Below, one piece after another: positions 4,029-4,175 of a DNA stretch of 5,481 bases. Numbering within the stretch: position 1 is the stretch's first letter; each line of letters starts with the position of its first letter. The stretch covers positions 1-5,481 of IMG/VR virus record IMGVR_UViG_2728369593_000014, one strand, 5' to 3'. This DNA is from a virus (Duplodnaviria; Heunggongvirae; Uroviricota; Caudoviricetes). The translations under genes and the position numbers were made by a program. The notes under the pieces were generated by a model that saw nothing but the letters and a program-made list of their open reading frames with translations, did not search any database and was not told the origin of the DNA.

Positions 4029-4048
4029 TATCCCTCCCGGTTATTGAT

Positions 4049-4082
4049 ATGGTGTTGACATCGTTAATACCTGTTGGTTAAA
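4049..4082 (+). promoter_or_regulatory. Promoter-like element, module 3: perfect -35 TTGACA, 17-nt spacer, TTAAAAAA
   Basis: TTGACA at 4049-4054; same overall architecture as modules 1 and 2 and followed about 45 nt later by a plus-strand terminator. Confidence 0.25.
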
Positions 4083-4122
4083 AAAGTGTCCTGCATGTTT
4101 TGCTTTGGATATAACGACATTT

Positions 4123-4170
4123 GCCGCCGGTTCTGGCTCCTTGTTTTCCCTGCCCCGGCGGCCTTTTTTT
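4123..4170 (+). terminator. Intrinsic terminator, plus-strand orientation (module 3), abutting the 3' end of minus-strand gene A
   Basis: GCCGCCGG(4123-4130)…CCGGCGGC(4155-4162) with a long 24-nt loop, followed by C-TTTTTTT (4164-4170); the minus-strand side has no U-run. Confidence 0.5.
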
Positions 4171-4175
4171 CCTGC

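Follow-up and report, generated by a model that had tools for sequence, protein, structure and literature searches.

A promoter-hairpin unit opposite the lysis genes of a decayed lambdoid prophage is the gene for the Hfq-binding sRNA EcOnc33

Introduction

Does a short gap between two late genes of a lambdoid prophage, in which a perfect TTGACA hexamer is followed by a hairpin and a run of seven T residues, encode an RNA of its own, and if so, which one? This question is raised by a stretch of 5,481 nt from the IMG/VR record IMGVR_UViG_2728369593_000014 (in the following called the window), for which a first-pass annotation made from the sequence alone had described three such units within 1.1 kb, all of them directed against the minus-strand late genes. 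The units, here called modules 1, 2 and 3, were thought to represent either a family of antisense or small RNAs or unidirectional terminators that guard against convergent transcription. Module 3, which is located next to gene A, is the subject of this analysis.

Small RNAs at such positions have been described before. A catalogue of RNAs crosslinked to Hfq in E. coli O157:H7 Sakai contains 63 orphan RNAs (Tree et al., 2014, Mol Cell 55:199; PMC4104026), and its authors pointed out that the lambdoid prophages of EHEC generally have convergent sRNAs, which are placed between the moron downstream of PR' and the adjacent phage ORF. RNase E-CLASH data were published by Waters et al. (2017; PMC5286369), where hybrids of one of these RNAs, EcOnc33, are found in Table EV7 and in another supplementary table. 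The related literature on PasA, PasC, EcOnc35 and EcOnc51-52 comprises Pearl Mizrahi et al. (2021) and Zhu, Shabalina & Storz (2026).

Results

The window comes from a lambdoid prophage and covers its late (lysis) region, which is encoded on the minus strand. Listed in the order of the late operon, the genes and the three plus-strand units are arranged as follows:

4826-5059, minus strand: DUF1737 fragment, first in late-operon order
4176-4829, minus strand: gene A, C-terminal DUF6645 remnant of the sialate O-acetylesterase gene nanS-p (Pfam DUF6645, E = 4.9e-70)
4055-4170, plus strand: module 3
3846-4028, minus strand: DUF1378 gene (Pfam DUF1378, E = 5.8e-40)
about 3620-3811, minus strand: truncated DUF826
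3334-3708, minus strand: second DUF6645 fragment
3235-3332, plus strand: module 2, EcOnc51/52 sRNA unit with a PasC-like terminator
3067-3186, plus strand: module 1, PasA-family sRNA gene with a PasA-2/EcOnc35-like 5' part and a PasA 3' part
2685-2891, minus strand: P21-type holin S, followed by lysozyme R and Rz/Rz1

Module 3 lies wholly within a gap of 147 nt between two late genes of the opposite strand, and the DUF1378 gene, which is divergent from the putative sRNA promoter, starts 27 nt upstream of its -35 hexamer. Modules 1 and 2 share a single gap, the one from the DUF6645 fragment to holin S, so that the three units are not distributed over three separate intergenic gaps as had been suggested. 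Several of the protein-coding genes are remnants: in the RefSeq annotation of a 99.9% identical strain four of them carry a partial flag, namely gene A (N-terminus missing), DUF1737, DUF826 and the second DUF6645 ORF. In intact relatives gene A corresponds to the C-terminus of NanS-p, the 9-O-acetyl-sialate esterase, and Sakai carries a full-length esterase at this place. The sRNA genes of the window are intact while the late genes that flank them are decayed.

A comparison with Sakai revealed the identity of module 3. Window positions 4020-4185 are identical over 166/166 nt to the gap between ECs_1527 (nanS-p) and ECs_1528 of prophage Sp6 (NC_002695.2), and it is Sp6 of E. coli O157:H7 Sakai in which EcOnc33 was first reported (Tree et al., 2014; PMC4104026). 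The probe used for the EcOnc33 Northern blot, AAATGTCGTTATATCCAAAGCAAAACATGCAGGAC, is the exact reverse complement of window positions 4088-4122 (35/35 nt, minus strand). As the probe matches the minus strand, it detects an RNA of the plus strand, opposite to the late genes. For Sp6, Table S2 of the same study gives EcOnc33 on the minus strand and the late genes on the plus strand. This table uses an older version of the genome, and the offset of about +136 to NC_002695.2 was set from AsxR and EcOnc03, which lie on either side of the locus. After this conversion the published Hfq-CRAC peak (1557089-1557136, minus strand) corresponds to about 4089-4136 on the plus strand of the window. According to the same table, the peak is present in 5/5 datasets with an AUC of 2.6e7, which is among the highest, a Rho-independent terminator is predicted for EcOnc33, and its band in the Northern blot is at about 71 nt. 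The CLASH reads labelled EcOnc33 are substrings of the window as well.

The match of the Northern probe, the identity to Sp6 and the position of the Hfq peak together establish that positions 4055-4170 on the plus strand are the gene for EcOnc33, an Hfq-binding sRNA of lambdoid prophages. The feature noticed in the first-pass annotation is therefore real and was already known, as the RNA was reported in 2014 and interaction data followed in 2017. The expectation of a plus-strand sRNA of about 85 nt that ends near 4170 is borne out by the CRAC peak and by the band of about 71 nt, both of which were obtained on an identical sequence; for the window's own host, expression would be expected by extrapolation from Sakai. 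Taking all evidence together, we consider a gene with its own promoter for an Hfq-dependent sRNA that base-pairs in trans to be the best explanation of module 3, with a probability of roughly 0.9.

A literature search by the name EcOnc33, by the RNA sequence and by arcA in combination with prophage sRNA retrieved no dedicated study. Searches against Rfam with the whole window (E <= 1) and with positions 3050-4190 (E <= 10) gave no meaningful match on the modules. Matches to the rimP leader, the KSHV IRES and MIAT were the only ones returned and are due to chance. There is no Rfam family for EcOnc33, PasA or EcOnc51/52, the RefSeq records that we examined annotate no RNA at this site, and therefore annotation pipelines miss these sRNAs and a reader who has only the sequence rediscovers them.

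The elements of the EcOnc33 gene can be assigned to the window as follows:

4055-4060, plus strand: TTGACA, -35 hexamer of the putative EcOnc33 promoter, 6/6 consensus
4075-4085, plus strand: putative extended -10-like element, TGg followed by TTAAAA(AA)
4078-4085, plus strand: TTAAAAAA, which starts exactly 17 nt past the -35 hexamer
4090-4170, plus strand: transcribed region with predicted ends, at most 81 nt (published Northern band about 71 nt)
4091-4118, plus strand: putative single-stranded 5' seed region with the core CUGCAUGUUUUGCU (4091-4104), assigned by CLASH hybrids with arcA and dps and by the fold
4123-4170, plus strand: intrinsic terminator and likely Hfq-binding 3' module, assigned by folds, a CLASH arm-to-arm hybrid and conservation of the stem
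4123-4130 and 4155-4162, plus strand: left arm GCCGCCGG and right arm CCGGCGGC of the terminator stem, followed by C4163 and T7 at 4164-4170
4176-4178: stop codon of gene A

The -35 hexamer and TTAAAAAA had been recognized correctly together with their spacing, and only the position of the hexamer, given as 4049, was wrong by 6 nt. The hairpin with its T7 run was found as described, and the run indeed ends 5 nt short of the stop codon of gene A. Two hexamers may serve as the -10 element, either TTAAAA with a 17-bp spacer and a preceding TGg or TAAAAA with an 18-bp spacer. Both are weak, as they match the consensus at 3-4 of 6 positions and lack the T at -7. With either of them the predicted start site is 4090-4091, which coincides with the 5' end of the CLASH fragment (CCTGCATG...). 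Judged from these elements, EcOnc33 is probably a primary transcript made from its own sigma-70 promoter. The maximal predicted length of 81 nt is larger than the value of about 71 nt reported from the gel.

Folding of the RNA from 4090 to 4170 (81 nt) yielded -23.7 kcal/mol (z = -2.5) with an 8-bp G+C stem, which is extended by 3 pairs and followed by the U-run; the fold also contains a weak 5' hairpin, and the first 30 nt are largely unpaired. Starting at 4088 (4088-4170), the energy is -26.6 kcal/mol (z = -3.4). With its 8+3 bp stem and seven U residues (a U-tail of at least 6 was looked for) the hairpin has the properties of an intrinsic terminator. Read on the minus strand, A7 comes before the hairpin and CAAATGTCG after it, and there is no U-run, so that the hairpin can be an intrinsic terminator on the plus strand only, in line with the original description. 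Between the putative single-stranded 5' seed and the terminator with U7 an A/U-rich linker, AUAUAACGACAUUU, is located. This order of parts is the usual one in an Hfq sRNA. The composite pattern TTGACA-N16-19-WWAAAA-N30-50-GCCGCCGG matches once in the window and in 0/200 dinucleotide shuffles.

A consensus scan of the window did not list the promoter of module 3 because the -10 element has no T at -7, and the terminator went undetected as well, its loop being too long. The scan also called a spurious hairpin over the -35 hexamer of module 3. A possible small ORF within EcOnc33 was considered as well, but the frame that opens with the ATG at 4095 crosses the terminator and is not preceded by a Shine-Dalgarno sequence, and coding potential was rejected.

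Like EcOnc33, the other two modules are documented Hfq-associated RNAs. In module 1, window positions 3153-3177 are exactly complementary to the Northern probe for PasA. The module aligns with PasA of E2348/69 and with Sakai Sp12, and its first 40 nt at the 5' end deviate in the manner reported for PasA-2. For EcOnc35, a CLASH fragment corresponds to this module as it occurs in Sp12. The Hfq peak of EcOnc51 maps to module 2 via Sakai Sp12, and CLASH fragments of EcOnc51/52 match module 2 too. In E2348/69, module 2 corresponds to the 3' part of the 236-nt minor isoform of PasA, which is a read-through product extending from the terminator of module 1 to that of module 2. The distance between the end of module 2 and the stop codon of the second DUF6645 ORF is 1 nt.

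Alignment of module 1 with module 2 showed that the two are homologous (Smith-Waterman z = 6.5; promoter parts z = 6.9). Module 3 had been regarded as a third copy of the same unit, but it has no more than architecture and position in common with them: local alignment against 1000 dinucleotide shuffles gave z = 2.0 and 0.4 for module 3 versus modules 1 and 2, and z of about 0.2 for the promoter parts. We also derived a covariance model from 13 variants of module 3. Module 3 itself reaches 95 bits in this model, and the values for module 2 (12.7 bits, E = 0.15) and module 1 (10.1 bits, E = 0.55) amount to no detectable homology. An unrelated minus-strand terminator at 2932-3000 scores as modules 1 and 2 do. 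Module 3 is also no member of the PasA/PasC group, as it contains neither alignable sequence or fold nor the sites of the Pas probes. The proteins encoded by the two DUF6645 ORFs ahead of the sRNAs share 38% identity, so that a very old common origin of an esterase tail with an antisense sRNA is possible, but the RNA sequences show no sign of it.

To describe the distribution of EcOnc33, complete E. coli genomes and IMG/VR prophages were searched. The unit, taken as a gap of 152 nt, is present in 363/5426 complete E. coli genomes, 309 of them at an identity of at least 99% (mostly O157:H7, also O103:H2) and about 47 at 60-90%. In 309 genomes the conservation of the sequence is 100%, and at 81-88% identity the architecture is still kept. 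The gap that contains EcOnc33 is always located between the esterase/DUF6645 gene and DUF1378, and the order esterase, sRNA, DUF1378, DUF826 and holin was retained in every variant examined, divergent prophages included. In IMG/VR the terminator motif was detected in 65 prophage contigs, which represent 17 distinct versions. The exact pattern of the terminator motif had 0 matches among 185,579 species representatives, a narrow test with one genome per species; the outcome would fit an RNA largely confined to E. coli prophages but is no proof of absence elsewhere.

The TTGACA of the promoter is kept in 5/6 E. coli variants and in most IMG/VR variants, and the TAAAA of the -10 element is kept in all variants. 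In 15/65 IMG/VR loci the -35 hexamer has been lost by an 11-nt deletion, and these loci also carry a 15-nt insertion in the 5' part. With the exception of these loci, promoter and hairpin are conserved together in most related prophages, a point that had been proposed as a check of the module. Across 13 variants the 8-bp stem is invariant or G-U compatible (G-C to G-U), and the loop has an indel of 5-6 nt. No covariation was detected among these 13 variants, neither in the terminator nor in the 5' hairpin, because the stems are invariant, which speaks neither for nor against the structure; the comparative support thus consists of conservation only.

Evidence for the partners of EcOnc33 comes from the supplementary tables of Waters et al. 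(2017; PMC5286369). An intramolecular hybrid listed there, CCTGCCCCGGCGGCCTTT joined to ATTTGCCGCCGGTTCTGG, connects the two arms of the EcOnc33 terminator, so that pairing of the arms in vivo has been demonstrated by others on an identical sequence. The best-scoring intermolecular EcOnc33 hybrid in the supplementary table is ATTTAGGTAGCAAACATGCAGACC joined to CCTGCATGTTTTGCTTTGGAT, which was recovered with arcA in 5 reads from both replicates and in both orientations (FDR 2.7e-4) and is listed as overlapping an Hfq site on the target. The target ECs_5359 is arcA, and the mRNA half of the hybrid covers the Shine-Dalgarno sequence and the AUG. Using RNAduplex we calculated -22.8 kcal/mol for the pairing of sRNA positions 4091-4118 with arcA positions -22 to +6. 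This energy is better than only 95% of simple shuffles (p about 0.05), and therefore the weight rests on the experimental hybrids. A duplex calculated with the whole RNA (-41 kcal/mol) was discarded, since it over-extends by unfolding the terminator, and the 5' region alone was used. Another partner in the tables is dps with 2 reads, located inside the coding sequence and involving the same region of the sRNA as arcA. Within the putative seed, position 4097 is a G in the O157-type allele and in the window, and a T in most divergent alleles. The T weakens the arcA duplex to -18.6 kcal/mol.

Discussion

Based on these data we propose the following mechanism for EcOnc33. A sigma-70 promoter with a perfect -35 hexamer, a 17-18 bp spacer and a TG-extended, A-rich -10 element would initiate transcription at about 4090, and the polymerase would run against the Q-dependent late operon until it is halted at the G+C hairpin and U7 (4123-4170), just ahead of the esterase gene. 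The RNA would then act in trans as an Hfq-dependent base-pairing sRNA, with Hfq presumably held by the 3' hairpin and the U-tail, and the unstructured 5' end (CUGCAUGUUUUGCU...) would be available for pairing with mRNAs. Pairing with the Shine-Dalgarno sequence and start codon of arcA would repress translation of ArcA. Among the candidates arcA is the best-supported target, and we judge the chances of this repression as close to even, with a slight lean against it.

The location of the gene also allows a different view, namely that EcOnc33 is mainly a cis-antisense RNA with perfect complementarity to the 3' UTR of nanS-p and the 5' UTR of DUF1378 in the late transcript, so that an 80-bp duplex formed on induction leads to cleavage by RNase III or to changed expression of the lysis region, or that its convergent promoter causes transcriptional interference. 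EcOnc33 is indeed located inside the gap between opposite-strand late genes, this position is kept in all relatives and convergent sRNAs are typical of the site (Tree et al., PMC4104026). A role of this kind would also be compatible with action in trans. As the main function it nevertheless seems unlikely, since EcOnc33 starts at about 4090 and does not overlap the ribosome-binding site and start of DUF1378 (4028-4045), and since it is abundant and Hfq-bound in uninduced lysogens, in which the late operon is silent. Furthermore, the CLASH hybrids examined here, those with arcA and dps, join EcOnc33 to core-genome mRNAs, and the late genes that would be regulated in cis are decayed in the window, whereas the sRNA is intact.

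EcOnc33 as an sRNA acting in trans on mRNAs also has to be compared with the prophage-encoded anti-sRNAs AgvB, AsxR and EcOnc03. These RNAs are bound by Hfq, have their own promoter and intrinsic terminator and are convergent to the late operon at a moron insertion site; EcOnc33 shares these properties, although its promoter is a putative one, and it lies immediately 3' of the esterase moron in antisense orientation to the late operon. From this common niche (convergent and 3' of a moron downstream of PR') and from the common dependence on Hfq one could assume that EcOnc33 is a sponge, whose 5' end mimics an mRNA target and titrates a core-genome sRNA. We regard this as quite improbable, because AgvB, AsxR and EcOnc03 have a length of 51-60 nt and a common 42-nt 3' region, whereas EcOnc33 has about 71-81 nt and does not contain this region. 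In addition, a comparison of EcOnc33 with the Rfam families AgvB (RF02702) and AsxR (RF02703) gave no match even at E <= 10, which places it outside both families. AgvB, AsxR and EcOnc03 act on sRNAs (GcvB, FnrS), whereas the EcOnc33 hybrids among the CLASH data examined here are formed with mRNAs, with arcA and dps as the top partners.

The second proposal of the first-pass annotation, that module 3 is a unidirectional terminator which shields gene A from stray plus-strand transcription and that the TTGACA is incidental, has in its favour that the hairpin with its U-run works on the plus strand only and lies close to the stop codon of gene A, and that module 2 likewise ends at the stop codon of the other DUF6645 ORF. 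It is contradicted by the published Northern and CRAC data, because a discrete and abundant Hfq-bound RNA of about 71 nt is made from an identical sequence and starts about 33 nt upstream of the hairpin. Moreover, the -35 hexamer and the A-rich -10 element are conserved together with the hairpin, and the stretch from the promoter to the hairpin is used for pairing in vivo. The hairpin is the terminator of the sRNA, which makes a guarding function unnecessary as an explanation, and we consider it very improbable. That a hexamer and a hairpin meet by chance in A+T-rich intergenic DNA, for which one might cite the poor -10 element and the lack of enrichment of promoter-like sites in the window (4 versus 7.9 expected from shuffles), is practically irreconcilable with the absence of the composite pattern from all shuffles, the complete conservation in 309 genomes and the direct RNA evidence.

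With EcOnc33 as the preferred reading, the nearest known system is its counterpart in Sakai Sp6, where the same RNA gene is found on the same strand and with the same neighbours, i.e. the stop of the esterase gene and the start of DUF1378, and no difference exists within the gene. The surroundings differ: the host prophage of the window is decayed, the esterase is cut to its C-terminal DUF6645 part and, unlike at the Sp6 locus, a PasA/EcOnc51 pair is present in the same prophage. The Pas RNAs and EcOnc51-52 are similar to EcOnc33 in having a perfect TTGACA, a TG-extended A-rich -10 element, an RNA of about 80 nt, a G+C terminator that ends in U7 and dependence on Hfq. In the Q-to-S region they also adjoin the 3' end of a DUF6645/sialate-esterase ORF, to which they are antisense. 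They differ in the terminator stem, which is GCCGCCGG in EcOnc33 and AGCCAGC in Pas, and in the downstream neighbour, which is DUF1378 for EcOnc33 and the holin for Pas. HnrS (EcOnc10-12) and Esr41 (EcOnc14) came from the same discovery screen and depend on Hfq too. Both act in trans on core-genome mRNAs with validated targets (hha for HnrS; cirA, chuA and bfr for Esr41), whereas the targets of EcOnc33 are candidates, and their sequences and loci are unrelated to EcOnc33.

As EcOnc33 was published in 2014 and its interactions in 2017, the discovery value of the locus is little. The sole functional lead for EcOnc33 is the pairing at the translation start of arcA, which stems from a supplementary table (PMC5286369). 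If this pairing is true, it links a prophage sRNA to the control of respiration in enterohaemorrhagic E. coli. One may go further and assume that EcOnc33 represses the global redox regulator ArcA, that the pairing is allele-specific (G4097 versus T) and that prophage lineages retarget the sRNA in this way. As the sRNA genes are intact and the neighbouring protein genes are decayed, the host would then keep the prophage remnant for its three sRNAs. We present this combined scenario as speculative and rather doubtful. Independent of it, three experimentally supported Hfq sRNA genes in 1.1 kb of a decayed prophage are a rare arrangement, and the PasA/EcOnc51 pair occurs together with EcOnc33 in one prophage in 7/5426 complete E. 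coli genomes.

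Tandem sRNA units upstream of the holin gene

The gap before the gene for the P21-type holin S carries two homologous sRNA units in tandem, whose promoters are near-identical and follow the scheme TTGACA-N15-TGT with an A-rich -10 region:

3067-3186, plus strand, module 1, PasA/EcOnc35-like sRNA unit
3235-3332, plus strand, module 2, EcOnc51/52 sRNA unit

The same tandem of module 1 and module 2 is present in both Sakai Sp12 and E2348/69 PP2, and read-through from the first terminator to the second corresponds to the published 236-nt 'minor' isoform of PasA. The terminator of module 2 is PasC-like and therefore each 'PasA locus' may comprise two related sRNA genes. 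Both modules share their gap with a terminator-like hairpin on the late-gene strand (2943-2969, minus strand; 11 pairs, seven of them G-C, with a T-run), which precedes the start codon of holin S by about 50 nt and could halt unmodified RNA polymerase ahead of the lysis genes in lysogens.

Conservation and variation of EcOnc33

The protein genes flanking the sRNAs on the minus strand (window 3334-5059) are decayed. Gene A, the C-terminal DUF6645 remnant of the sialate esterase nanS-p, is missing the N-terminal esterase domain, the DUF1737 and DUF826 genes are truncated, and DUF826 is followed by a second, fused DUF6645 fragment. The annotation of a 99.9% identical strain marks all four as partial. 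Unlike these decayed neighbors, the Hfq-binding sRNA gene EcOnc33 is 100% identical to its counterpart in Sakai. The combined arrangement of EcOnc33 with PasA/EcOnc51 was found in only 7 of 5426 complete genomes.

EcOnc33 varies among other prophages, and in a sub-lineage comprising 15 of 65 IMG/VR contigs an 11-nt deletion has removed the -35 element TTGACA, accompanied by a 15-nt insertion (CTCAGCATATTTTTG) within the 5' region of the sRNA (loci L016-L080, variants v2, v3, v4, v8, v12 and v16, and also L010:1483-1631). A further difference concerns the seed base at window position 4097 (plus strand), which is G here and T in most divergent alleles. In the predicted duplex with the candidate target arcA this G pairs with the C immediately 5' of the AUG, and since the replacement by T weakens the duplex from -22.8 to -18.6 kcal/mol, the prediction suggests that targeting by EcOnc33 is allele-specific.

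Other hairpins, ORFs and window edges

A 13-bp hairpin (AAAACCCCG...CGGGGTTTT; 1336-1368, both strands) with plus-strand T-runs on its flanks lies between small ORFs downstream of the lysozyme gene R. The Rfam match of this element to the 'rimP leader' is weak (25.6 bits at E = 0.57, with the gathering score set at 47) and not meaningful, as it reflects no more than this terminator. Between R and S an orphan 104-aa ORF (2112-2426, plus strand) is inserted opposite to the lysis genes; it has no match in Pfam and is annotated as hypothetical protein in a near-identical strain.

At the right edge (5296-5481) an IraM-like anti-adapter gene (RssB inhibitor) begins directly upstream of the DUF1737 fragment; it is encoded on the plus strand, opposite to the late genes, and beyond it the related strain carries a tRNA-Arg/Arg/Ile cluster. 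At the left edge, the lysis cassette is directly adjoined on its Rz/Rz1 side by the 3'-terminal part of a transposase-like ORF (1-285, plus strand; ...LYKAEVIHRKSWKNRTEVELATLTWVDWYNNRRLLERLGHIPPAEAE...). This ORF presumably resembles orfB of the IS3 family, and an IS element may therefore interrupt the prophage at this point. On this side of the window the near-identical strain Z1323HEC0355 carries different DNA.
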